Shown: positions 2-38,550 of the stretch, in pieces
Layout of the letters: every line of letters begins with the position of its first letter
Numbering within the stretch: the first letter of the stretch is position 1
NCBI GenBank assembly: GCA_964526195.1
Contig: CAZGIH010000020.1
Location: 12,803-76,802 of the forward strand
DNA: 64,000 bases
Source: an uncultured Chromatiales bacterium
GTDB lineage: Bacteria; Pseudomonadota; Gammaproteobacteria; Poriferisulfidales; Poriferisulfidaceae
Direction: 5' to 3'
Notes under the pieces: generated by a model
Told to the model about the DNA's origin: nothing
What the model saw: only the letters and a program-made list of their open reading frames with translations
Database searches by the model: none
Made by a program: the position numbers and the translations under genes

Positions 2-1939
2 GGTATTGATCTGGGAACCACGAACTCCTGCGTCGCAGTGATGGAGGGTTCGGGTGCGCGCGTCATCGAAAACAGCGAAGGCGATCGGACCACGCCGTCG
101 ATCGTGGCGTTCACCGAGGACGGTGGCGAGGTGCTGGTTGGACAGACTGCCAAGCGTCAGGCGGTGACCAACCCGGAACACACGGTGTTCGCGGTCAAGC
201 GGCTGATTGGCCGGCGCTTCGACGAGGGCGAAGTCCAGAAGGACATCAAGCTCGTTCCGTTCTCCATCGTCAAGGCCGACAACGGCGATGCCTGGGTTGA
301 GGCACATGGAAAGAAGATGGCACCGCCGGAAATCTCCGCGCGGGTGCTCGGCAAGATGAAGCAGACGGCCGAGGAGTACTTGGGCGAGGAAGTGACCGAG
401 GCGGTCATCACCGTGCCGGCGTATTTCAACGATTCGCAGCGTCAGGCGACCAAGGACGCCGGGCGCATCGCCGGACTCGAGGTCCGGCGCATCATCAACG
501 AGCCGACTGCGGCGGCGTTGGCCTATGGCATGGACAAGAAGCACGGCGACACCAAGATCGCGGTATACGATCTCGGTGGCGGAACCTTCGACATCTCGAT
601 CATCGAGATTGCCGAGGTCGACGGCGAACACCAGTTCGAGGTGCTGGCAACCAATGGCAACACCTTCCTGGGTGGCGAAGATTTCGACCTGCGCCTGATC
701 GATTTCCTGTCGGACGGCTTCCAGAAAGAGTACGGGGTCGACCTGCACAATGATCCGATTGCCCTCCAGCGCCTGAAAGAGGCTGCCGAGAAGGCCAAGG
801 TGGAATTGTCCACTGCACAGCAGACCGAAGTGAACCTGCCGTACATCACGGCGGACTCCAGCGGGCCGAAGCACTTGAACGCGAAGATCACGCGTGCCAA
901 GTTCGAATCCCTGGTCGAAGACCTGGTCGAGGGCACCCTGGAACCGTGCCGGATCGCGATGAAGGATGCCGGAGTGTCGGCCGGAGATATTTCCGGAGTG
1001 ATCTTGGTCGGTGGCCAGACCCGGATGCCGAAGGTTCAGGAAGCGGTCGAGGGCCTGTTTGGCAAGGCGCCGCGCAAGGACGTCAACCCCGACGAGGCGG
1101 TGGCGATTGGTGCGGCTATTCAGGGTGGCGTGCTTGGCGGCGACGTCAAGGACGTCCTGTTGCTGGATGTGACCCCGCTGTCGCTTGGCATCGAAACCCT
1201 GGGTGGGGTGATGACCAAGCTGATCGAGAAGAACACCACCATTCCGACCACTCAGACCCAGGTATTCTCGACGGCGGCGGACAACCAGCCGGCGGTCACG
1301 GTGCATGTACTGCAAGGCGAGCGGGAGCGTGCCGATGCCAACAAGTCGCTGGGTCGTTTCGACCTGACCGACTTGCCGCCCGCTCCGCGCGGCGTGCCGC
1401 AGATCGAGGTGTCCTTCGACATCGACGCCAACGGAATTCTCAGCGTCTCGGCCAAGGACAAGGCTACCGGCAAGGAACAGTCGATCGTCATCAAGGCGTC
1501 CAGCGGACTGACGGACGATGAGATCGACCGGATGGTCAAGGATGCCGAAGCGCATGCCGAGGAAGACCGCAAGTTCCAGGAACTGGTGCAGGCGCGCAAT
1601 ACCGCGGATGCCTTGATCCATGCCACGACCAAGGCGATGGAGGACCTGGGCGACAAGGTTTCGGGTGAAGAGCGCGCGCAGGTGGAAAGTGCCGCAAACG
1701 ACCTGAAGGAAGCACTGAAGGGTGACGACTTGGCGGTCATCGAGGCGAAGACGAAGGCCCTGTCCGATGCTAGCGGTGACATTGCCCAACGTGCCTATCA
1801 GGAGGCGCAGCAGGAGGCAAGTGCCGGCGAGCAGGCTCCGCCCGACTCCGAAAAAAGCGATGATGGCGTAGTGGATGCCGACTTCGACGAAGTCGACGAG
1901 GCGGGCAAGTCCGGGTCGGGCAACGGCAAGTCTTCCTGA
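2..1939 (+). CDS. dnaK: Molecular chaperone DnaK (Hsp70), 5'-truncated by window edge
   Basis: The frame is open from the first bases and reads [14 protein letters not shown]...; Hsp70 signature stretches ([19 protein letters not shown]) and the acidic C-terminus are present; dnaJ follows. Confidence 0.97.
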
Positions 1940-1969
1940 TCCTGGAGGGGGCTCGATGCCGCATGCCCG

Positions 1970-3100
1970 ATGGCCAAACGCGACTACTATGAAGTACTAG
2001 GCGTCGACCGAAAGGTCAGCGAGGCGGACCTCAAGAAGGCGTATCGCCGGTTGGCCATGAAGCACCACCCGGACCGCAACAAGGACGACGCTGACGCCGA
2101 CCGCAAGTTCCGGGAGATCCAGGAAGCCTACGGCGTCCTGTCCGATTCCGAGAAACGTTCCCTGTACGACCGCTTCGGGCACGATGCGGTCGGGGCTTCG
2201 GGTGCATCCGGTGCCGCAGGGGCGGCCAGCGGGTTCGAAGATATATTCGGTGACATGTTCGGCGACATGTTCGGTCGGGCGAGCCGGGGCCGCACGGAAG
2301 TACGCGGCGCAGACCTGGCCTACCGGGCTGAGTTGGATCTGGAAGAAGCGGTATTCGGGGTAACCCGCGAGATCGATGTCGAGATGGCGATGCAGTGCGA
2401 AACCTGCGATGGCACCGGTTGCGCACCCGGCACCCAGCCGGAAACCTGTTCGACTTGCCAGGGCCGCGGCGAGGTGGTGGTCCAACAGGGCTTCTTCACC
2501 CTGCGCCAGACCTGCCCGAAATGCCATGGCGAGGGCCGCACCATTCGCGTGCCCTGCCACGATTGCCATGGTGCGGGACGCGTGCGCAAGACGCGCACGC
2601 TGCGAGTCAAGATCCCGGCGGGCGTGGATCAGGGAGACCGGGTTCGCCTGACCGGAGAAGGCGAGGCCGGCATGCGCGGTGGTGCGCCGGGGGATCTGTA
2701 CGTAGAGGTGAGGGTGCGCAAGCACCGCCTGTTCCGCCGCAAGGGGAACGACCTGCATTGCGATGTGCCGATTAGCTTTGCCATGGCGGCGTTGGGCGGG
2801 GCTGTCGAGATCCCGACGCTGGACGGCCACGTGAACCTGAAGATCCCTCCGGAGACGCAAACGGGCGTGTCGCTGCGCCTGCGCGGCAAGGGTGTTAGTT
2901 CGGTCCGCAACTCGTCTCCGGGCGACATGATCTGTACCATGGTCGTCGAGACCCCAGTCAGTCTGAATGCGGGACAGCGCAGGCTTCTCGAAGAATTGGA
3001 AGAGTCCCTGACCGGAAATGAGGTACACTCCCCCCGTGCCGATTCCTGGCTGAAGCGGGGGCGGCATTTCGTGGACAACCTGAAGTCTTGGTTGCACTAG
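1970..3100 (+). CDS. dnaJ: Co-chaperone DnaJ
   Basis: N-terminal J-domain (YYEVLGV...HPDRN), G/F-rich linker ([10 protein letters not shown]), four CxxCxG zinc-finger repeats; sits directly after dnaK. Confidence 0.97.
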
Positions 3101-3116: not shown

Positions 3117-3932
3117 ATGGGAAAAGTTCGAGTAGGGATTGCTGGTGTTACCGGCCGAATGGGCAGCACCCTGGTTCGGGTGGCGCTGGAGACTCCCGGC
3201 ATTGCGCTGGGCGCGGCCAGCTCGCACAGCCAAGACGAGTTAGTGGTTGGGCGGGACGCCGGGCTGTTCTCGGGAGGGGAAGAGTCGGGTGTGGCGATTT
3301 CCGGGTCGCTCGAATACTGCCATGGAGATTTCGACGTTGCGATCGACTTCACGTGCCCCGAATACACGGTGGAACTGGCCCGGTTCTGTGTGGAACAGGA
3401 AAAGGGCATGGTGATCGGTACGACTGCGCACAGCAAAGAGCAGTTGGAAGCCGTTGCCGAGGCGGCGAAAAAAATCCCGATCGTGATGGCGCCGAACATG
3501 AGTATTGGCGTCAACCTGATGTTGAACCTGATCACCGAGGCCGCCAAGTCGCTTGGCGACGAGACGGATACGGACATCGTGGAATTGCATCATCGCAAGA
3601 AGCACGACGCCCCGTCCGGTACCGCGCTGGCTTTGGGCAAGGCGGTGGCGAAAGGAAGGAAACAGGCATTCCCGGACTGTGCTTCGTTCAGGGCCCTGTC
3701 GACGGGCGACGAAAGAGATGCGGACAAGATCCAATATCACATCATGCGGATGGCGAACGTTGTCGGCGAGCACCGGGTGGTTTTCGCCTGGAACAACGAA
3801 CGGTTGGAGTTAGTGCACCGGGCGGGCAGCCGGGAGATTTTCGCTGGCGGTGCCTTGCGCGCGGCGGCTTGGGTTTCTGGCCGGTCACCCGGGCTGTATT
3901 CGATGCAGGACGTACTCGCGATGTTAGACTAA
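3117..3932 (+). CDS. dapB: 4-hydroxy-tetrahydrodipicolinate reductase
   Basis: 271 aa; N-terminal Rossmann motif [11 protein letters not shown]; conserved dnaKJ-dapB neighbourhood. Confidence 0.92.
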
Positions 3933-18885: not shown

Positions 18886-19251
18886 ATGATCCCCGGACAG
18901 CGCCCGGTGGCGGTGGGCGAACAGGTTCGCAGGCTTATCGGCCCGGCCTTGCTGCATGAAGTCAACGACCCGCGCCTTCGGCGGCTGACGGTTTCCGAGG
19001 TCGTCATGAGCCGGGATCTGAAGCATGCCACCGTGTACGTAATCAGCGCGGAAACGCCGGATTCGCGCCGGCGTGCGGAAATCGAAGCTGGATTCGAGCG
19101 CAGCACACCGTTCTTTCGCCGGTTGATTGGCGAGCGTGGTGGTCTGCGCTATGTGCCGAAGCTGCGCTTCATCCTGGACGATACCGAGGACCGGGCAGAG
19201 CGGATCGAAAGTCTTCTGGAGACATCTACCCGCGCCAAGACCACTCCGTGA
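18886..19251 (+). CDS. rbfA: Ribosome-binding factor A
   Basis: 121 aa; conserved position after infB. Confidence 0.92.
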   Translation: MIPGQRPVAVGEQVRRLIGPALLHEVNDPRLRRLTVSEVVMSRDLKHATVYVISAETPDSRRRAEIEAGFERSTPFFRRLIGERGGLRYVPKLRFILDDTEDRAERIESLLETSTRAKTTP

Positions 19252-20141
19252 CTCCACTTGTGCCTTGCGGCTGGTTGCTGCTGGACAAGCCGGTCGGACT
19301 GAGTTCGACCCGTGCCGTATCCCGAGTCAAGCGCCTCTTTCAGGCGAAGCGTGCCGGACATGCGGGCACTCTCGATCCATTGGCGAGCGGACTCCTCGCC
19401 ATCGCCCTGGGCCCGGCCACCCGCTGGTGCGCCTACCTGCTGGATGCCCCGAAATCCTACCGGTTCACAATCCGGCTGGGCCGAGAGACAGACAGCCATG
19501 ATGCGGAAAGCTTGGAGCAAGCGGCTCCGCCTCGTGCCGAAATCCCCTCGCTGGAGCGCGCTGAAATCGACGACCTGCTGTCCCGCTTTACCGGGGAAAT
19601 CCAACAGGTCCCGCCCATGTATTCCGCGCTCCACAGCGAAGGGCGACGCCTGTACGAACTGGCTCGCGAGGGCAAGGTGGTTGATCGGCCTCCCCGCGAA
19701 GTAAGGATCGACCGGCTGGAGCTGCTTGCGGATCGCCGGGAGGAGTGGGAACTTGAGGTTTCCTGCGGCAAGGGCACGTATGTGCGCTCGCTGGGGCACG
19801 ATATCGGCCAGGCGTTGGGTTGCGGAGCATACGTGAGCCAGTTGCGGCGCACGGAGCTCGGGGTTTTTGACGAAGCCCAGGCAGTCAGCCTGGAACAGGT
19901 CGAGGCCGATTCCGAGGAAGCACGCTTGGCGCGATTGCTTCCCCCAGATGCAGTGCTACCCGAGTGGCCGGTTCATTCCTGCACGGCGAGTGAGGAGGCC
20001 GCGTTGCGCAAAGGGCAGCAGATCGTTCACGAGGGATCTGCGGGATTTTGGAAATTACAGGATGCGCAGGGCCAGTTTTTCGGTGTGGCCGAGGTGCTGG
20101 AGACGGGACGGCTCCAACCGCGGCGCCTGATGGATAGATAA
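19248..20141 (+). CDS. truB: tRNA pseudouridine(55) synthase
   Basis: 297 aa; GHAGTLDPLASG catalytic-Asp motif; C-terminal PUA domain; conserved position after rbfA. Confidence 0.95.
   Translation: MTPLVPCGWLLLDKPVGLSSTRAVSRVKRLFQAKRAGHAGTLDPLASGLLAIALGPATRWCAYLLDAPKSYRFTIRLGRETDSHDAESLEQAAPPRAEIPSLERAEIDDLLSRFTGEIQQVPPMYSALHSEGRRLYELAREGKVVDRPPREVRIDRLELLADRREEWELEVSCGKGTYVRSLGHDIGQALGCGAYVSQLRRTELGVFDEAQAVSLEQVEADSEEARLARLLPPDAVLPEWPVHSCTASEEAALRKGQQIVHEGSAGFWKLQDAQGQFFGVAEVLETGRLQPRRLMDR
20124..20133. repeat. Left copy of a 10-bp direct repeat CGCCTGATGG (last codons of truB) flanking the low-GC islet
   Basis: An exact 10-mer also occurs at 21338-21347; the two copies bracket about 1.2 kb of markedly AT-rich DNA. 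Confidence 0.5.
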
Positions 20142-20250
20142 CTTGATAGAGATTGTGGTGCCCTCTAATCCTACAGACATCGAATGGTTGCAGTAACGGA
20201 TAAAATTTTTTTATTTTCAATCATTTATAGAAACGAATCGTCTAAACATC

Positions 20251-20279
20251 AAAACACAGAGAAACTTAGGACTATAATG
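20251..20279 (+). promoter_or_regulatory. Candidate sigma70-like promoter for the islet gene
   Basis: Consensus -10 TATAAT at 20274-20279; weak -35 AAAACA at 17-nt spacing; AT-rich upstream region. Confidence 0.3.
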
Positions 20280-20329
20280 ACGACTCAAATGAAATTACAG
20301 ATTATTTGGATTTTTTAGGAGAAAAAATA

Positions 20330-20767
20330 ATGGGCGTACAGGCGATTGATGTGGCCGCCTACATTCTTAAAGAGCTTGGCACAATGCCCGCCATGAAGCT
20401 CCATAAGCTTGTCTATTATTCTCAAGCATGGTCTCTTGTGTGGGACGACAAGCCCATTTTCCATGACCGGATTGAGGCATGGGCAAATGGCCCAGTCATC
20501 CGGAATTTGTATAACAAACACAAAGGAAGGTTTCGTGTGGGCAGCATTAAGGGCGCCGAACGGACATTGCTGAACTCCGAACAGTGTGAAACCATAGATG
20601 CTGTTCTTGATTACTATGGTGACAAGTCTTCGCAATGGCTCAGTGATTTGACCCACATGGAGGCTCCGTGGCAAGAAGCACGAGCAAAAGCGGGTCTTGC
20701 CAGTGGACAACGCGGAAACGCATGTATCACTCATGCATCTATGGCTGAATACTACTCTGGTTTGTAA
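20330..20767 (+). CDS. Panacea-domain (DUF4065 / GepA-SocA-like) protein, antitoxin-type domain
   Basis: 145 aa from the ATG with AGGAGA 8 nt upstream; KLHKLVYYSQAWSLVWDDKPIFHDRIEAWANGPVIRNLYNKHK matches the DUF4065 core. About 40% GC against about 65% in the flanks. Ends at TAA 20765-20767. Confidence 0.7.
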   Translation: MGVQAIDVAAYILKELGTMPAMKLHKLVYYSQAWSLVWDDKPIFHDRIEAWANGPVIRNLYNKHKGRFRVGSIKGAERTLLNSEQCETIDAVLDYYGDKSSQWLSDLTHMEAPWQEARAKAGLASGQRGNACITHASMAEYYSGL

Positions 20768-20773
20768 AGCAAC

Positions 20774-21217
20774 TTGGGCAGGAAGCCAGCCAGAAAATTA
20801 TCCAAATCATCCGAACTCCCCCGTCCCACTAAAAAAGCAAAGAGTGGCGGGGATTCGGGCAAAGACGGTCATTTGTCCTGGAGGTTCAGTGCGTGTGACA
20901 AGAACGGTCCTTGGCCTTGGTTGGGGCTATCAGATCCCGAAACACATCAACGTGTAATAGAGAAATTATCAGGTTTTGAACAACTGAACCCAGAGCAAAT
21001 TAAAAAAACAGGGAGTCATCCTATAGAGGTTGGTAAACTTGTAAAAGACGCTAGAGACCGCCTTCAGCAACTTCATAAAGATGATGTGGATGAACTTTAT
21101 TCGTTCCGCATTTCTAGCAGAGAAAGAGTTTGGTGCATAAGGAAACAGAATGTTATGGAAGTCTTGTGGTGGGATCCAGAACACCATGTCTATCCAACAC
21201 AGCCTAGTAATACCTAA
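20774..21217 (+). CDS. 147-codon ORF in the same frame as the Panacea gene, separated from it by one TAA and two codons; no ATG or RBS; possible C-terminal portion or readthrough product
   Basis: A long open frame in AT-rich DNA. The only in-frame starts are TTG. The C-terminal stretch DELYSFRISSRERVWCIRKQNVMEVLWWDPEHHVY loosely resembles the final strands of RelE/ParE-fold toxins. Confidence 0.4.
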   Translation: MGRKPARKLSKSSELPRPTKKAKSGGDSGKDGHLSWRFSACDKNGPWPWLGLSDPETHQRVIEKLSGFEQLNPEQIKKTGSHPIEVGKLVKDARDRLQQLHKDDVDELYSFRISSRERVWCIRKQNVMEVLWWDPEHHVYPTQPSNT

Positions 21218-21337
21218 ACTACTTTTCCGACTTCAAAAAACTAGAATCATTCAGATGGCTTGGCTGGAAACCGCCTTTATGGGCATTTGCCGCTCGGCAT
21301 GCTCGGTCGCACTTGGCAAGTTATCCATACAATCCCT

Positions 21338-21347
21338 CGCCTGATGG
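21338..21347. repeat. Right copy of the 10-bp direct repeat CGCCTGATGG
   Basis: Exact match to 20124-20133; lies where high GC resumes, upstream of sppA. Confidence 0.5.
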
Positions 21348-21394
21348 CCGACCCCGAGAGTCCAGTACAATCGGCAATCTAGAGGAAAGCCGCC

Positions 21395-22318
21395 ATGGAT
21401 GAAAAAGAATCCGCTCTCGTCGTTGCGGTCCGCGAACTGACCGCCGAGACCCGCCGTGCCCGACGTTGGCGAACCGCGTTCGCCACGATTCCGTTTCTTA
21501 TCCTGCTGCTGATCCTGCTCGCGATGCTCGGAGGAGAGTCCTCGTTGCCGAGGCAGGATGCGCACACTGCCCGGATCGACGTGTTCGGCCCGATCGTGCC
21601 CCAGGCCCCGGCAAGTGCGGAATTCATCAACCAGTCGCTGCGCGAGGCATTCGAGGAAGAACAGGCAAAAGGGGTGGTGTTGCGCATCAACAGCCCCGGC
21701 GGATCGCCCGTCCAGGCGGATCGCATTAGTTCGGAGATCCAGAGGCTGAAGGCGGAATACCCGGAAAAGAAAATCTATGCGGTGGTCGAGGACCTGTGCG
21801 CGTCTGCCGCGTACTACATTGCTGTCGAGGCAGACGAGATCTACGTCAACGGTTCCAGCCTGGTCGGCTCGATCGGTGTGATCGCCAGCGGGTTCGGTTT
21901 CGCCGAACTGATCGAAGAGTGGGGCATCGAGCGGCGCGTAACGGCTTCCGGGCGGCATAAGGCGATGCTCGATCCGTTTCTGCCGCAGGATCCGGAGGCT
22001 GAGGCACATCTTCAGAATCTGGTGGATCGGATCCACCAACAGTTCGAGAACGCTGTCAAGGATGCCCGGGGAGAGCGTTTGACGGCCTCGGACGAAGAGG
22101 TGTTCGACGGGCGGATCTGGACCGGCGACCAGGCGCAGGAGATGGGGCTGGTGGACGGATTTTCGGATGTTGCGCAGGTTGCGCGCGACCAGGTCGGGGC
22201 CGAATCAGTGGTGAATTACACCTATGAGCCGGATTTCCTGGAGCGCGTGGCGGACCGGGTTGGTGCCCGGCTGGCCCAGATGGCAGAATCTTGGTTGCGC
22301 AGCCCGGTGCGGTTCTAG
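21395..22318 (+). CDS. sppA: Signal peptide peptidase SppA (36K type, S49 family)
   Basis: 307 aa; N-terminal membrane anchor; LRINSPGGS active-site Ser motif; RBS GAGGAAAG. Confidence 0.9.
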   Translation: MDEKESALVVAVRELTAETRRARRWRTAFATIPFLILLLILLAMLGGESSLPRQDAHTARIDVFGPIVPQAPASAEFINQSLREAFEEEQAKGVVLRINSPGGSPVQADRISSEIQRLKAEYPEKKIYAVVEDLCASAAYYIAVEADEIYVNGSSLVGSIGVIASGFGFAELIEEWGIERRVTASGRHKAMLDPFLPQDPEAEAHLQNLVDRIHQQFENAVKDARGERLTASDEEVFDGRIWTGDQAQEMGLVDGFSDVAQVARDQVGAESVVNYTYEPDFLERVADRVGARLAQMAESWLRSPVRF

Positions 22319-22902
22319 TCCGCGCCCGGGATATCAAGACCCGCTTCCCGCAGCATTTCAATCAAACGGATCATCGGCAGGCCGATCAGGGCCGTCGGGT
22401 CGTCACCGCTGACATGGTGCACCAGGCTGATGCCGAGCCCTTCGGATTTGAAACTCGCCGTGCAGTTGTAGGGCTGTTCGCTCTGCAGGTAGTGCTCGAT
22501 CGCATCCTCGCTCAATTCTTTGTAGTACACCGTGTGGGGGGATTCGGAGTAGCGGCACGTACCGTTCCCGGTGTCGAGCAGGCATAGCCCAGTCAGGAAG
22601 GTTGCTTCCTGTCCGCTCAACTGGCGTAGCTGCTCCACGGCCGCATTGTGTGTGCCGGGTTTGCCGAGCAGTTGCCCGTTCAACTCCGCGCACTGGTCGC
22701 TGCTGATGATCAGGGCGTCCTGATGCCGGTTTCCGACTTCCTCGGCCTTCTCGTGAGCAAGCCGTCGCACGTAATCCGATGCGATTTCGCCGGGCTGGGG
22801 TGTTTCGTCAATATCGGGGGCATCCACCGTAAAGTCCAGATGCAGGCGTTCGAGGAGTTCCCGGCGATAAGGGGAGCTGCTGCCAAGGATAAGAGTGCGC
22901 AT
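22315..22902 (-). CDS. maf: Maf-like nucleoside triphosphate pyrophosphatase
   Basis: 195 aa; MRTLILGSSSPYRRELLERL is the typical Maf/YhdE N-terminus. Confidence 0.9.
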   Translation of the reverse strand: MRTLILGSSSPYRRELLERLHLDFTVDAPDIDETPQPGEIASDYVRRLAHEKAEEVGNRHQDALIISSDQCAELNGQLLGKPGTHNAAVEQLRQLSGQEATFLTGLCLLDTGNGTCRYSESPHTVYYKELSEDAIEHYLQSEQPYNCTASFKSEGLGISLVHHVSGDDPTALIGLPMIRLIEMLREAGLDIPGAD

Positions 22903-23027
22903 GGAGTTTGGGTGGAGAGGATGTAGACCTAAAAGTGTGGCGTCAACACTTGATATTCCTCATTATAAAAGGCTTGGCGAGGCAGTTGCGCGGGGCTTCG
23001 ACTGCTATAATTGCATAAATTACCGCT

Positions 23028-23696
23028 GTGAGACCGATAGTGACGAACATTGCATCGCTACGTTTGTCCGGGGGCGCATTTGCGCTTGCCGTCCTATTGC
23101 TGTGGGCGGGCATTGGGGTCACGGCGGAATCCCCGCAGGCCCGGCTGCAGAGCGTCAGCGATGAGTTGCTGGAGCAAATCCGCCTGAGAATGGACGAATT
23201 CGAGCGCGATGACGAGGCGCTGTACACTTTCGTGGACGCCACGCTGGGCGGCGTGCTGGACTACGACCAGATCCTGAAGATCATCCTCGGCAAGAAGATC
23301 TATCAGGAGGCGACACCGACGCAACGCGACGAGTTCATTGTTTCACTCAAGCGGCAGTTGCTCGAACTGTACGCGAAAGTCATACTCAAGTACGCCGACG
23401 GCAAAGTGCAGTACCTGCCGTTCGAGCTCAAGCCCGACAAAGCCTATCAAGTGGTTCGCACGGAATTCCTGATGTCCGGCAAGGCTCCGGTCGACCTGAC
23501 CTACCTGATGCGCGAAATCGAAGGCGAATGGTACGTGTTCGAGATCCGCGCCGACGGGATTTTCCTGATCAAGAGCCTGAAGGACAGCCTGCGCCCCGAA
23601 ATCAAACAGAATGGCCTGGATGCCGTGATTGAGCGTCTGCGTGGCGAAACGCCTGGGAAGACTTCCCGGCGATTTACGCTGCACGCGCACGCCTGA
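23028..23696 (+). CDS. MlaC/Ttg2D-family periplasmic phospholipid-binding protein
   Basis: 222 aa; signal peptide; MlaC-like core (ATPTQRDEF..., LKYADGKVQY...); followed by murA as in mla-murA neighbourhoods. Confidence 0.75.
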   Translation: MRPIVTNIASLRLSGGAFALAVLLLWAGIGVTAESPQARLQSVSDELLEQIRLRMDEFERDDEALYTFVDATLGGVLDYDQILKIILGKKIYQEATPTQRDEFIVSLKRQLLELYAKVILKYADGKVQYLPFELKPDKAYQVVRTEFLMSGKAPVDLTYLMREIEGEWYVFEIRADGIFLIKSLKDSLRPEIKQNGLDAVIERLRGETPGKTSRRFTLHAHA

Positions 23697-25624: not shown

Positions 25625-26691
25625 AATACCCAACGGACGACCTGCGGATTACCGACTTACAAAACGTCAGTGCTCCGAAAGAGATCTTGGAAGAATTCCC
25701 GCTGACGGAAGCGGGCGCGCGTACGGTGTTCGAGGCGCGGGCGCAGATTCGCGAAATTCTGCAGCAATCGGACGATCGCCTGATGGTGATCGTCGGCCCG
25801 TGCTCCATTCACGACGTGGAGGCGGCGCACGAGTACGCGCAGCGCCTGCAGCCGGTCCGGGACCGGCTGGCGGAAGACCTCCTGATCGTAATGCGGGTGT
25901 ATTTCGAGAAGCCACGCACCACGGTCGGCTGGAAGGGTTTAATCAACGATCCGGACCTGGACGACAGCTATCACATCAACCAAGGTCTGCGTTTGGCTCG
26001 CGGGTTACTTGTATGGTTGGGCGAACAGGGGCTTCCGACCGGAACCGAGTTTCTGGACCTGATTACGCCGCAGTACATTGCCGACAGCGTCAGTTGGGGG
26101 GCGATCGGCGCCCGCACCACTGAAAGCCAGTGCCACCGGGAACTGGCCTCCGGGCTGTCCTGCCCGGTGGGCTTCAAGAACGGGACCAGCGGCGATATTC
26201 AGGTGGCGGTGGACGCATTGCGTTCGTCTACCCAGCCGCACTGCTTCCTGTCGCTCACCAAGGAGGGGCGGAGTGCGATTTTTCACACGACTGGTAACCA
26301 GGACTCCCACGTCATCATGCGGGGCGGGCAGCAGCCGAACTTCGAGGCCAATGCGGTCGAGGAGGTTTGTGCACGCCTGGAACAGGCGAAACTGCCGGTT
26401 CGCGTCATGATCGACTGCAGCCACGCGAACAGCCGGAAGGTTCCCGAACAGCAGATGCGGGTGGCCGACAATATCGGCGAGCAGATTTGCGCGGGAGACC
26501 GGCGGATCGTCGGGGTCATGGTGGAAAGCCACTTGGTCGGCGGCAACCAGAAGCTGGTTCCTGGTGAGCCGTTGCAATACGGCCAGAGCATTACGGACGC
26601 CTGTCTCGGATTCGAGCAGACGGAACAGTTGCTCGAAGGCTTGGCCGAGGCGGTTCGGACGCGACGGCAGCGCGCCAGCCGGGCTGCATGA
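25621..26691 (+). CDS. 3-deoxy-7-phosphoheptulonate (DAHP) synthase, class I (AroG/F/H type)
   Basis: 356 aa; near-collinear with the E. coli AroG pattern (DDRLMVIVGPCSIHD, VMRVYFEKPRTTVGWKGLINDP, GAIGARTTESQ, SGLSCPVGFKNGT). Confidence 0.96.
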   Translation: MKYPTDDLRITDLQNVSAPKEILEEFPLTEAGARTVFEARAQIREILQQSDDRLMVIVGPCSIHDVEAAHEYAQRLQPVRDRLAEDLLIVMRVYFEKPRTTVGWKGLINDPDLDDSYHINQGLRLARGLLVWLGEQGLPTGTEFLDLITPQYIADSVSWGAIGARTTESQCHRELASGLSCPVGFKNGTSGDIQVAVDALRSSTQPHCFLSLTKEGRSAIFHTTGNQDSHVIMRGGQQPNFEANAVEEVCARLEQAKLPVRVMIDCSHANSRKVPEQQMRVADNIGEQICAGDRRIVGVMVESHLVGGNQKLVPGEPLQYGQSITDACLGFEQTEQLLEGLAEAVRTRRQRASRAA

Positions 26692-35111: not shown

Positions 35112-35968
35112 GTCGGGCCCTGGAAGTGGAGCAACAGCAGCCAGAACCCTGAACTGGCCAGCAATAACCCGGTTATCGTTCGGAATAGCCGCGCAGGGCT
35201 TGGAAGGGCCTTTTCGACGATCACGAAAAGCGCGATAGCCGCGACCCACAGCATGTTCATCATGCCGACGGCGAACAGGACCAGCATCAGCGCCCAGCAG
35301 CACCCGATGCAATACAGTCCGTGTTCAAAAGACATCTGCAGGGCGCCAGCCCGGCCGTCTTTCCAGCGGGCAAGCAGGAACTGCATGGGTGTTCGGCACA
35401 GGGTGAGGCAGACATCTTTCCATGGCGTCCACTGGTACAGGCCCGCCACGATCAGCAAAATGCCGCTGAACAACTGGCTTCGACTGTCCATCATGGGGTC
35501 GAGCAGCCCCCATTCGTGCAGGGGCCACTGCACGACCGAGATCACTGCGGAAAACGCGGCCCAAGAGGCGAGATAACCGACCAGAAAGATCATCCAGGGG
35601 ACGATTTTCAAGGTCTGCCGGCTCCGGTTCCGTTGTACGACCCGGTACATCCGCAGCATCGGCACGGCACTGGGCGTCATCATCGCGACCATCATGATCG
35701 ACCACATGGCGAACAGCATCCAGAAGTCGTATCCGCTCCAGCCGCCGACTCCGGCGGGCGGAGGCATCCACGCGATAGAGGGCCCGCCCCGCATCATGTC
35801 GCGCATCATCCATTCCATGTACAGCATCCAGCCCCACCCGCTGGCGGTGACGGCGATGACGGCGCCGATGAGGGTCCAGCGTTCAGCCGTCGGCAGGGGC
35901 GCGAATTCAGGAGTGGAGGCGGTGGCAGGCATGAGCGAAGCTCCCGCGGCCATTTTAACAGGTGGCAT
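35108..35968 (-). CDS. DUF2182-family polytopic membrane protein (predicted metal-binding)
   Basis: Multiple TM helices; HGLYCIGCCW motif; start codon ambiguous. Confidence 0.6.
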   Translation of the reverse strand: MPPVKMAAGASLMPATASTPEFAPLPTAERWTLIGAVIAVTASGWGWMLYMEWMMRDMMRGGPSIAWMPPPAGVGGWSGYDFWMLFAMWSIMMVAMMTPSAVPMLRMYRVVQRNRSRQTLKIVPWMIFLVGYLASWAAFSAVISVVQWPLHEWGLLDPMMDSRSQLFSGILLIVAGLYQWTPWKDVCLTLCRTPMQFLLARWKDGRAGALQMSFEHGLYCIGCCWALMLVLFAVGMMNMLWVAAIALFVIVEKALPSPARLFRTITGLLLASSGFWLLLLHFQGPT

Positions 35969-35997
35969 ATGTTGGAAGATGGGGATATAGTGGCCTA

Positions 35998-36963
35998 ATG
36001 AAAGCGGTAAATCGAGACAAGCCGGACCAATGGAAAGAAGACATTATCCGGTCAGTCGACATGTACAACAAGTGGTTTATCAGATTTGCGCCAAAAGCGT
36101 ATCGGGATGTTCGAGAGCAGACAGCCGAGGATGTCAAAAAGATGTTAAAAGCGACGGGCAATTTCAGAAAAATTGATGTAGCATTGCTCAAGGCATTTCC
36201 TGCTGTGTTGCCGACACTTCGGATGACCACTTCTCCACCGCTTGCAATAGATCGCTTGGTAGGACTCTCGGGCGCTTCAGCCAACCTTGTCAAAGTGATG
36301 GAAAAACAAGGCAAGCTTCCCTCTCGGATGTCACCGAGGGAATTGGATGCCAACCTTAGGAAAATCAGCAAAACGATCCAGAAAATGATTGATCCGGACA
36401 TTTTTGGCTGGTTGAAGAACGACAGAAAACCATCTCGACAGGACTTGTACCGGGCCGCGACAATTGTGGCTGACCGGTTATGCGGTGCTGTTGCAAACCC
36501 GATTATTCGCAATGCTCAGGAAAGAAGACAGCTTGCTACCATCGGGAAGTGGCTAAAGAATCGTGGCTATTTGAAGATTTCACCAGGAGAGGGAGCAAAA
36601 TATGATGAAATGCAGCCGGGAACATATTCGTTCCGACTGAATGTGCCAGCCGAGCAGGATCAAACTGGTAAATCAGTTAATATTCCTATGGATGTTGCCG
36701 TGATGCCTAAAAATGCGAAAGTGAGGAATTTGCCGCTTCTCATAGAGGCAAAATCTGCGGGTGACTTTACAAATGTCAACAAGCGCCGAAAGGAAGAAGC
36801 CACAAAAATGAGTCAATTGCGGCGAACCTATGGCAACAACGTGCGGTTTATTTTGTTTCTATGTGGATATTTCGACAGTGGCTATCTCGGCTATGAAGCA
36901 GCAGAAGGTATCGACTGGGTGTGGGAGCACCGTGTCGATGATCTCGAAAAATTTGGGATTTAG
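35998..36963 (+). CDS. Putative type II restriction endonuclease (PD-(D/E)xK), partner of the downstream methyltransferase
   Basis: IPMDVAVMPKNAKVRNLPLLIEAK gives a D...EAK nuclease motif. Its TAG stop abuts the methyltransferase ATG. About 47% GC against about 65% for the host. An alternative GTG start lies at 35962. Confidence 0.55.
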   Translation: MKAVNRDKPDQWKEDIIRSVDMYNKWFIRFAPKAYRDVREQTAEDVKKMLKATGNFRKIDVALLKAFPAVLPTLRMTTSPPLAIDRLVGLSGASANLVKVMEKQGKLPSRMSPRELDANLRKISKTIQKMIDPDIFGWLKNDRKPSRQDLYRAATIVADRLCGAVANPIIRNAQERRQLATIGKWLKNRGYLKISPGEGAKYDEMQPGTYSFRLNVPAEQDQTGKSVNIPMDVAVMPKNAKVRNLPLLIEAKSAGDFTNVNKRRKEEATKMSQLRRTYGNNVRFILFLCGYFDSGYLGYEAAEGIDWVWEHRVDDLEKFGI

Positions 36964-38550
36964 ATGGCTAGAAGTGAAATTGCGACGCTGGAGAAGCATC
37001 GTTTGATGCTTCAGGGGCAACTGGACTCAAAAAAGCATCAAGTTGAACGGAATCGGATGGGGCAATTCGCCACGCCTCCAGAATTGGCAGTGGACATTCT
37101 CCGTTATGCTGAAACCCATAGCGGGATCAACGAAAGAGTCCGTTTCCTTGACCCAAGCTTGGGAACCGGGTCGTTTTATTCAGCTTTGCTCAAAGTGTTT
37201 CCACAAAACCGCATTGATTCTGCTGTAGGCTACGAAATCGATTCCCATTATGGAATTCCTGCGGCAAATTTGTGGGAAAAGACAGGCTTGGATGTCCGTT
37301 TGAGTGATTTTACGCGGGCTGAAGCGCCACCAGATTCTGAAAAGTTTAACCTGCTTGTTTGTAACCCACCTTACGTTCGGCACCATCATATTGACAGTGG
37401 AGAAAAACAGCGCCTGAAGGCCTGTTTGCAGAAAGCGTGCAGCATGCGGCTCAGTGGATTGGCCGGATTGTACTGTTATTTTCTTGGGTTAAGCCATAAG
37501 TGGCTGGCCGAGGGAGGGCTTGCGGGCTGGTTGGTGCCAAGCGAATTTATGGATGTGAATTATGGTGCTGCAGTAAGGAATTACCTGCTAAATAACGTGA
37601 CGCTGCTGCATCTGCATCGATTTGATCCAGACGATGTGCAGTTTGAAGACGCCTTGGTGTCTTCGGTTGTGGTCTGGTTCCGCAAAGCGAAACCGCCGCT
37701 AGAACACCACGTCAGGTTCACATACGGTGGATCGCTTGGCAGCCCAAGGCTGGAACGTTTGGTGCCCGCCGAGACGCTGTGTCGTAGCTCTAAGTGGACA
37801 GGCTATCCGGCAAAAGAGGACGGTGATAAAGCAAATGTGCCAGTTTTGGGTGATTTCTTCAGCATTAAGCGGGGACTGGTGACCGGGGGCAACCGGTATT
37901 TCATCTTGACACTTGAGGAAATCAAGTACCGTGGATTACCTCGAGAAGCATTTCGGCCCATATTGCCGAGCCCGCGTTATTTGCGAGAGAACGAAGTAGT
38001 AGCCGACGGGGATGGAAACCCGGTGCTGGGCCGTCGTTTATTCTTGCTTGATTGCCGACTGGGAGAGGCGCAGATAAGGAAGAAATATCCAGCCTTGTGG
38101 AAATATCTTGAAGAAGGGGAAGCACTGGGTATAGCCAAACGCTACCTCTGTCGGCATCGGACACCTTGGTATACACAGGAAGAACGGCCGCCAGCGCCAT
38201 TCGTATGCACTTACCTTGGAAGAAAGGGAACAAAAAACGGGCGGCCGTTTCGCTTCATACTGAACCACTCTCGGGCGACTGCCGCAAATGTCTACCTCAT
38301 GCTCTACCCTAAAGGACCGATTGCCCGAGCCTTAGAGGAAGATCCGGACTTGAAAAAGAAACTCTGGAAGTTTCTCAATGCAATTCGTCCCCAGACAATG
38401 CTGGATGAGGGACGAGTCTATGGTGGGGGGTTGCATAAGCTTGAGCCAAGAGAATTGAGTAATGTACCGGTTGCGGAATTTGCGGAACTATTGCCGGAAC
38501 CAGCACGATTGCAGTCCGAAAAGCAAGGAGAATTATTTGTGGCAGTTTGA
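36964..38550 (+). CDS. Gamma-class N6-adenine DNA methyltransferase (Eco57I/TaqI-like) with C-terminal target-recognition domain
   Basis: 528 aa. Motif I FLDPSLGTGSF precedes motif IV LLVCNPPYVRHH, the gamma-class order. The low-GC composition is shared with the upstream nuclease. Confidence 0.85.
   Translation: MARSEIATLEKHRLMLQGQLDSKKHQVERNRMGQFATPPELAVDILRYAETHSGINERVRFLDPSLGTGSFYSALLKVFPQNRIDSAVGYEIDSHYGIPAANLWEKTGLDVRLSDFTRAEAPPDSEKFNLLVCNPPYVRHHHIDSGEKQRLKACLQKACSMRLSGLAGLYCYFLGLSHKWLAEGGLAGWLVPSEFMDVNYGAAVRNYLLNNVTLLHLHRFDPDDVQFEDALVSSVVVWFRKAKPPLEHHVRFTYGGSLGSPRLERLVPAETLCRSSKWTGYPAKEDGDKANVPVLGDFFSIKRGLVTGGNRYFILTLEEIKYRGLPREAFRPILPSPRYLRENEVVADGDGNPVLGRRLFLLDCRLGEAQIRKKYPALWKYLEEGEALGIAKRYLCRHRTPWYTQEERPPAPFVCTYLGRKGTKNGRPFRFILNHSRATAANVYLMLYPKGPIARALEEDPDLKKKLWKFLNAIRPQTMLDEGRVYGGGLHKLEPRELSNVPVAEFAELLPEPARLQSEKQGELFVAV

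Follow-up and report, generated by a model that had tools for sequence, protein, structure and literature searches.

We analyzed a stretch of 64,000 nucleotides, hereafter the window, from an uncultured Chromatiales bacterium of the Poriferisulfidaceae (assembly GCA_964526195.1, contig CAZGIH010000020.1, positions 12,803 to 76,802 of the forward strand). Between truB (19248-20141) and the S49 peptidase gene sppA (21395-22318) the window contains an inserted islet of 1,204 bp (20134-21337). This islet carries panA (20330-20767), which encodes a Panacea-domain protein of 145 residues, followed by a second open reading frame, ORF2 (20774-21217, 147 residues), a strong candidate for the corresponding toxin gene (putative panT). 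All features described are on the forward strand. The islet is bracketed by two perfect copies of the 10-bp direct repeat CGCCTGATGG, at 20124-20133 and 21338-21347, 1,214 bp apart and exactly where the initial annotation of this DNA had placed them.

The composition of the islet differs clearly from that of its surroundings. Its GC content is 0.442, and 0.30 in the first 200 bp that form the 5' leader, as against 0.64 in truB and 0.62 in sppA; the GC drop between the two genes, noted in the initial annotation, is found by calculation as well (0.44 versus 0.62-0.64). The GC content at third codon positions (GC3) is 0.50 in panA and 0.40 in ORF2, compared to 0.71 and 0.75 in the flanking genes. 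Both the GC and the GC3 values are foreign to the host, in keeping with an insertion.

The islet splits the 3' end of truB within its last dozen codons. The left repeat copy corresponds to the truB codons R-L-M-G/, and in the window the protein now ends with RRLM-D-R followed by a stop codon that is islet sequence. TruB nevertheless keeps complete domains through residue 295 of 297, with matches to Pfam TruB_N, TruB_C_2 and TruB-C_2. The original end of the gene has been displaced to the other side of the islet: when the truB frame is read on from the right repeat copy, in frame with the left copy, it encodes the tail RLMADPESPVQSAI (21338-21382) and reaches a stop codon at 21380-21382, 12 nt before sppA.

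Distribution of the islet in sister genomes

A search with TruB retrieved nine species-level relatives with TruB identities of 84-96%, all of them Candidatus Porisulfidus or other sponge gammaproteobacterial metagenome-assembled genomes (MAGs). In eight of the nine (L007 and L009-L015) truB is uninterrupted and continues past RRLM into a tail such as ADPEDSVQSES (generally RRLM(A/V)(D/G/E)..SVQS.. before the stop), and the sppA ATG follows the truB stop codon by 12 nt. The displaced tail found in the window resembles these intact truB ends. Each of the eight empty sites contains a single copy of CGCCTGATGG or a variant with one mismatch. Comparison of the truB-sppA junctions therefore bears out the insertion that had been proposed from the window alone.

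A 10-mer repeat on its own proves nothing, as its occurrence in 1.5 kb is within chance expectation. The 1.5 kb considered here contain two pairs of perfect 10-mer direct repeats, shuffled sequences contain 1.1 on average and at least one pair is present in 56% of the shuffles. CGCCTGATGG is also found twice more in the window, at 25777 and 47137, both times in ordinary high-GC coding DNA. What makes the repeat meaningful is that it sits exactly at both junctions, which are set independently by the empty sites of the eight sister genomes; the chance of a 10-bp match at a fixed junction is 4^-10, or about 1e-6. The second pair, GAAATTACAG, lies at 20051-20060 in truB and at 20291-20300 in the islet leader, and its frequency fits chance.

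L008 is the only relative that carries the same insert, with both repeat copies and the same 1,214-bp spacing. The islets of the window and L008 are 97.6% identical without indels. Because the islet is present in just two of the ten lineages and its copies are this similar, the insertion looks recent. The initial annotation had described it as old or non-autonomous; the age is not supported, but the element is indeed without a recombinase of its own. Between the window and L008 the non-coding part of the islet diverges by 4.5%, while synonymous divergence (pS) is 0.052 for panA, 0.076 for ORF2, 0.087 for sppA and 0.24 for truB. The ratio of nonsynonymous to synonymous divergence (pN/pS) is below 0.1 for both panA (pN 0.003, pS 0.052) and ORF2, which, on small counts, suggests purifying selection on both islet genes.

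Along 4.9 kb of left flank, L007, L008, L009, L010 and L011 all share 92-93% identity with the window, and the sppA side alone is somewhat closer to L008. Since the left flank is equally close to all five, the two islet-bearing genomes are not obviously sisters. We infer that one fairly recent insertion took place, after which homologous recombination carried the islet, together with sppA, from one lineage to another. That the window and L008 each acquired it independently at the same base is less likely.

The panA gene and its leader

The identification of a Panacea (DUF4065) gene, initially made from the translated sequence, stands after a profile search. PanA matches PF13274 over the full profile (positions 1-113) with an E-value of 1.2e-18 and 68.5 bits, the gathering cut-off being 25.7. 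It also matches phrog_1281 (8e-34) and NCBIfam SocA_antitoxin (1.6e-9, 37.7 bits, which is well under the 190-bit equivalog cut-off). The product contains no N-terminal domain beside the Panacea (DUF4065/SocA-like) domain.

Upstream of panA the islet has its own promoter, with a TATAAT -10 box at 20273-20278 and no good -35, and an AGGAGA ribosome-binding site at 20317-20322, 7 nt before the panA ATG. Both elements of this leader had been pointed out before, with the ATG placed about 2 nt away from its position at 20330, an immaterial difference. The -10 box is kept in five of the six Porisulfidus copies of the module, representing five loci, and conservation extends to the untranslated leader (50 nt) and to the AGGAG ribosome-binding site. 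A consensus promoter scan did not call this TATAAT because the -35 is poor.

Just past the -10 box we observed an inverted repeat, CAAAT-N13-ATTTG (20286-20312), that is kept in copies at other loci. It could be an operator, although PanA has no recognizable DNA-binding domain. In one of the other copies (L089, about 3890-3915, upstream of panA) around 21 C residues stand in place of the AT-rich leader and the -10 box reads TACAAT; the C run could have arisen in assembly or represent a phase-variable tract. At the opposite end of the islet, the 120-bp 3' tail (21218-21337) is not common to the copies at other loci. It contains no terminator, no Rfam match other than two sub-threshold chance matches, and no unusual hairpin.

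ORF2 and its protein family

ORF2 begins with a TTG codon at 20774, separated by 6 nt from the panA stop codon (20765-20767), and lacks its own ribosome-binding site. Homologues have an ATG at the position aligned with this TTG, and N-terminal conservation sets in there. The two genes share a reading frame, being separated by the stop and two codons (YYSGL-stop-SN-L/M-GRKP), and both the frame and the stop (TAA or TGA) are preserved in the copies L087 and L088. In more remote homologues the two genes overlap by 4 nt instead, and the common frame is therefore probably not a conserved read-through.

Pfam contains no family for ORF2 or for 86 relatives. A word-indexed search identified 29 relatives, and an exhaustive profile search yielded 2,496 clusters with E <= 1e-3, of which 1,830 reach E <= 1e-10, counted as representatives at 50% identity. 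Nearly all these proteins are 140-160 residues long. Their common features are a Lys/Arg-rich tail, a W-R-F-S..D..GPW motif and the motifs GSH(P)I, A..RL, S(F/L)R...R(V)W and LWWDP.H.V.P. In ORF2 numbering R96, R118, W132, D134 and H137 are invariant and H82 is found in at least 90% of the family sequences.

The N-terminal tail of ORF2 (residues 1-33) is Lys/Arg-rich and disordered, and a predicted RelE/YafQ-like BECR domain extends from about residue 34 to 140. The AlphaFold2 model has a predicted local distance difference test score (pLDDT) of 83.9, and its top Foldseek matches are all RelE, YoeB, YafQ, HigB or ParE. The core is predicted to adopt a fold of the RelE/YafQ/YoeB (BECR) type, with helices packed on an antiparallel beta-sheet. 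Membership of ORF2 in the RelE/YafQ group at the sequence level was considered and rejected: a profile search against PDB sequences returned nothing, hhalign against YafQ gave a probability of 0.2%, and Pfam was likewise negative.

Similarity at the profile level was found to NsnC, a protein of the Menshen system. Out of 87 family members, 61 match the C-terminal 80 positions (200-280 of 284) of the PADLOC NsnC model, with a best E-value of 1.7e-7 and 9.5e-4 for the ORF2 of the window. Weak matches to NCBIfam NF046006 (MAG6450 family protein) were obtained with 70 of the 87 members (best E-value 2.4e-8; 17.9 bits for the window protein versus a 40-bit cut-off). All NsnC and MAG6450 matches of the family are under the curated thresholds. 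ORF2 also matches phrog_8366 over residues 57-141 (1.7e-9). NsnC's C-terminal domain is a BECR RNase to which YafQ is structurally closest, with an H-R-H triad as opposed to the H-D-H of YafQ (PMC12065111). Judged from the alignment, H82, R96 or R118, and H137 of ORF2, the last being just past the last strand, would fit this H-R-H description.

Association of ORF2 with Panacea genes

We examined the genomic neighborhoods of the two genes. In all 29 toxin-seeded loci examined the ORF2-family gene adjoins a Panacea gene. Seeding with ORF2 gave a Panacea neighbor in each of four distinct contexts (six loci: an Acidiferrobacterales MAG, Mesorhizobium and two metagenome assemblies), of which three have the antitoxin gene first and one is convergent. 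On the conjugative Rhizobium plasmid pTH2b an ORF2 homologue with 26% identity overlaps by 4 nt a gene annotated as encoding a SocA-domain antitoxin, and the same Panacea-ORF2 pair is present on a phage contig from human feces. Among IMG/VR loci found via the WWDP.H motif, panA is immediately upstream in 23 of 23. Conversely, of the 56 metagenome loci seeded with PanA, 47 contain an ORF2-family gene, which nearly always follows panA directly downstream. Among the nine others, about four are cut off where the contig stops, and in the rest panA is an orphan. Searches of a phage collection at the DNA level found no relatives of the islet, and protein searches gave one phage and one plasmid record.

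Two of these neighborhoods had additional features. The IMG/VR contig L155 (1442-2361 and 2471-3342) carries two Panacea genes and two ORF2-family matches side by side, one pair in the usual order and the other divergent and much weaker (1.9e-31 and 6.4e-13). In the Acidiferrobacterales MAG (L001, about 3400-3560) the pair is located downstream of smpB and starts right after a sequence ending in GGTTCGATCCCCGCCACCTCCACCA, which looks like the 3' end of the transfer-messenger RNA (tmRNA) gene, where islands classically integrate. About 3.5 kb further downstream come genes for a BrnT toxin and for a helix-turn-helix (HTH) domain protein.

Copies at other loci in the genus

The PanA cluster at 90% identity or more has 13 members, whose contigs show the module at four further locations in Porisulfidus. 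It lies between an ATP-sulfurylase operon and the gene for an ABC-transporter binding protein in L087, whose chromosome has an empty truB site (seen as L011); between fur and acs in L088 and L094-L097; beside a DNA methylase gene in L089; and in a toxin-antitoxin cluster adjoining ccmE in L090 and L091. Homology to the window copy is 85-91% and covers window positions 20151-21224 in L087, 20200-21223 in L088, 20258-20858 in L089 and 20286-20801 in L090. The ends of the copies are therefore ragged, with left limits at 20151, 20200, 20258 and 20286 and right limits near 21224 in L087 and L088. At the L089 and L090 loci panA is intact and ORF2 is truncated or gone, whereas ORF2 is alone at none of the five Porisulfidus loci. 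Such antitoxin-only remnants are expected if ORF2 is the toxic partner.

In L151 the fur-acs site is empty (2893-3000, 108 nt), which confirms that the copy in the fur-acs region of L088 (3786-5032) is also an insertion. In L150 the fur-acs region (1167-3000) contains an unrelated gene for a 408-residue HTH_31 protein and a 42-codon open reading frame. In Porisulfidus the interval between fur and acs is an insertion hot spot.

Ends of the islet and mode of insertion

As already noted in the initial annotation, no integrase or transposase gene is present in the islet. The flanks consist of collinear core genes. Slightly inside the ends, 3 nt from the left and 12 nt from the right, we found a perfect inverted 9-mer, GATAACTTG at 20137-20145 and CAAGTTATC at 21317-21325. 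At most 0.3% of shuffles reach that length (p about 0.002-0.003). The left arm is kept in L008, and the arms are not in the L087, L088, L089 and L090 copies. We found no terminal inverted repeats conserved among the copies and no convincing direct repeats around those of L087 and L088.

Several specific candidates for the mode of insertion were tried and rejected. A common att core, CGCCTSATG, is not supported, as finding CGCCTCATGA at the L088 junction does not exceed background, which amounts to 1.9 matches per kb at up to two mismatches. An integron cassette is contradicted by the 3' tail, which folds no better than shuffles (z = 0.45 and -1.07) and has neither an attC-like fold nor core sites. 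A circular permutation, with the 3' tail of the window upstream of the module in L087, was not supported by Smith-Waterman comparison against shuffles (p = 0.2-0.9), and the tail is also unlike the L087 and L088 flanks.

Target-site duplication and a crossover within a 10-bp identity explain the duplication equally well. It is quite possible that a circular or linear donor recombined once within the 10-bp identity, either at an att-like core with an integrase acting in trans or by microhomology-mediated illegitimate recombination, and that the islet then spread by homologous recombination of its flanks. The ragged ends without conserved termini agree with such a crossover, as does the target, a gene 3' end like that used by many integrase-borne islands. 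The spread would also account for the neutral divergence between the window and L008, low for the islet and sppA and high for truB, and for a left flank no nearer to L008 than to four empty-site genomes. However, no integrase is present, the 10-mer core is not convincingly repeated at other junctions and, unlike with many integrative elements, the displaced truB end is not restored. A genuine target-site duplication, which a transposase in trans would have made on a non-autonomous element with cargo that resembles a miniature inverted-repeat transposable element (MITE), appears rather unlikely. This reading draws on the exact duplication at both junctions, the inverted 9-mer near both ends, the presence of the module at five different loci in the genus and an imperfect 12-bp repeat (10/12) near the junctions of the fur-acs copy, whose empty counterpart in L151 is too diverged (87% identity) to place the junction to the base. 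The 9-mers, however, are subterminal, asymmetric and not found in the copies at other loci, whose own ends are ragged and non-homologous, and no transposase was seen.

A bolder version is a long shot. The PanA-toxin pair and its promoter might be a minimal mobile unit that moves within reduced symbiont genomes without its own recombinase and makes 10-bp duplications through a trans-acting enzyme recognizing GATAACTTG/CAAGTTATC, its toxin founding a large family of stand-alone BECR RNases under Panacea control only. Such a non-autonomous toxin-antitoxin transposon would, if true, represent a class not described before.

Two other variable segments were observed in the window. Past maf (22315-22902), at about 22760-23200, identity to most sister genomes drops from about 0.93 to 0.46-0.78. 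It is 0.92-0.93 with L009, and L008 and L010 have another, common version. This segment adjoins the conserved truB-sppA-maf block. A second low-GC islet (about 0.47) at 35962-38550 contains the gene for a XamI-type restriction endonuclease (PF09572, E = 7e-112) and, after it, one for an Eco57I/N6_Mtase-type methylase. It looks like a type II restriction-modification system of horizontal origin.

Proposed function

We consider it probable that this recombinase-less islet, horizontally acquired and inserted in the last codons of truB in a Candidatus Porisulfidus sponge symbiont, carries a bicistronic PanAT-type toxin-antitoxin operon with an RNase toxin of the RelE/YafQ type. The obligate Panacea neighbor, the RelE/YafQ-type predicted fold and the loss of the gene in decaying copies make ORF2 a strong toxin candidate. 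The initial annotation, which had proposed the distal gene as an uncharacterized toxin, was right to that extent, but the domain is not a wholly unknown one. In this operon the conserved -10 promoter would drive panA, which has a strong ribosome-binding site. Owing to its weak TTG start and the lack of its own ribosome-binding site, ORF2 probably depends on translational coupling and yields less protein than the antitoxin gene. The toxin would be an RNase whose most likely substrate is mRNA on the ribosome, cleaved via His82, Arg96 or Arg118, and His137. By analogy with other PanAT pairs, PanA may neutralize it by direct binding. If PanA were lost or inactivated, for example when the module is lost or under stress or phage infection, the RNase would be freed and translation arrested.

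Two observations weigh against this proposal. None of the 87 ORF2-family members matches any RelE/ParE-type Pfam family (E <= 1), and the asymmetry of decay rests on just two loci, both found by a PanA-seeded search. We find it improbable that the toxin, instead of being an mRNA endonuclease, poisons gyrase in the manner of ParE or is some other protein of the RelE/ParE fold without RNase activity. It is more improbable still that ORF2 is a harmless RNA-binding or regulatory partner of the Panacea protein and the pair no toxin-antitoxin system at all. SocA-type Panacea proteins can indeed be protease adaptors and not simple inhibitors. Some of the predicted PanT genes, moreover, were not validated by Kurata et al. 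(PMC8832971). Yet the strict pairing, compact operon, mobility and foreign composition are hard to reconcile with a harmless partner, as are the conserved catalytic-type residues and a decay that leaves only the antitoxin.

A further reading, compatible with a Panacea-controlled RNase toxin, is that the module is primarily an anti-phage abortive-infection system in which a phage product removes or titrates PanA and the RNase shuts down the infected cell. The ORF2 domain is related to the effector domain of NsnC, and the family is common on viral and proviral contigs (the 23 IMG/VR loci, along with the phrog_8366 match). The module also lies beside restriction-modification and other toxin-antitoxin genes in L089 and L090, and the window itself contains the XamI-type islet. 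Closeness to defense genes is, however, equally typical of plain toxin-antitoxin modules. PanA has no PADLOC match, ORF2 reaches just 9.5e-4 in that collection, and no NsnA or NsnB partner is present. We regard a primarily anti-phage role as doubtful.

Comparison with known systems

As a mobile segment the islet shares with MITE-like and integrase-borne islets an exact 10-bp duplication, a foreign composition, the lack of its own recombinase and its presence at multiple sites. It differs from them in having no terminal inverted repeats, conserved ends, tRNA or tmRNA target or attC-like structure. It provides an unusually clean insertion record, with exact junctions, eight empty sites, four other loci and two stages of decay. 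Since the chromosomes of Porisulfidus symbionts are small (1.6-2.0 Mb), this record is useful for understanding how selfish modules move and persist there.

The ORF2 family is weakly similar to NF046006 and phrog_8366, both of unknown function. Compared to the RelE, YafQ, YoeB and HigB interferases, ORF2 has no detectable sequence similarity, is about 50 residues longer and has the Lys/Arg-rich tail and the W-R-F-S..D..GPW motif. Its partner is a Panacea protein and not RelB, DinJ, YefM or HigA. With the C-terminal domain of Menshen NsnC (PB-BECR1) it shares similarity at the level of hidden Markov models and a conserved set of the His-Arg-His type. In contrast to NsnC, ORF2 is stand-alone, would be controlled by an antitoxin and has no inactive PIN domain, and its neighbors are truB, panA and sppA, with no NsnA (ParB-DUF262) or NsnB (ABC ATPase) among them. 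The link between ORF2 and Menshen supports the idea that toxin-antitoxin toxins and defense effectors draw on one domain pool.

SocAB, the type VI toxin-antitoxin system of Caulobacter, has the same antitoxin domain, SocA being the founding Panacea protein, but ORF2 is not SocB. SocA works as a ClpXP adaptor, whereas the PanAT pairs tested so far bind directly.

The closest known systems are the PanAT operons of Kurata et al. (2022), for which antitoxin-first is the commonest order and direct complexes were shown (PMC8832971). These authors allow at most 100 nt between the two genes (PMC8832971). The module presents every computable PanAT feature that they use, namely PF13274, a short gap (6 nt) and conserved pairing. 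It resembles the PanAT systems in its Panacea-only antitoxin, its compact antitoxin-first operon, the occurrence of the pair across phyla and phages and its high mobility. RelE/YoeB/HigB/ParE-like PanT clusters were listed by HHpred in the same work (T14, T28 and others; PMC8832971). The ORF2 family differs from these systems in that Pfam has no model for it, and it is not known to be represented among the nine validated pairs. Cluster T6, which has a Mesorhizobium member, was considered as the ORF2 family and rejected because T6 is MazF-like. This kind of system is thus already known, and the module would not surprise a toxin-antitoxin specialist or establish a new principle. What is new is the identification of a Pfam-less toxin family, with its size and its dependence on Panacea, although it may coincide with one of the 88 clusters of Kurata et al., together with its relationship to the Menshen effector domain and a base-exact record of a natural insertion. 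A large Pfam-less family thereby acquires a testable proposed role, that of a Panacea-neutralized RelE/YafQ-like RNase toxin with named candidate catalytic residues.

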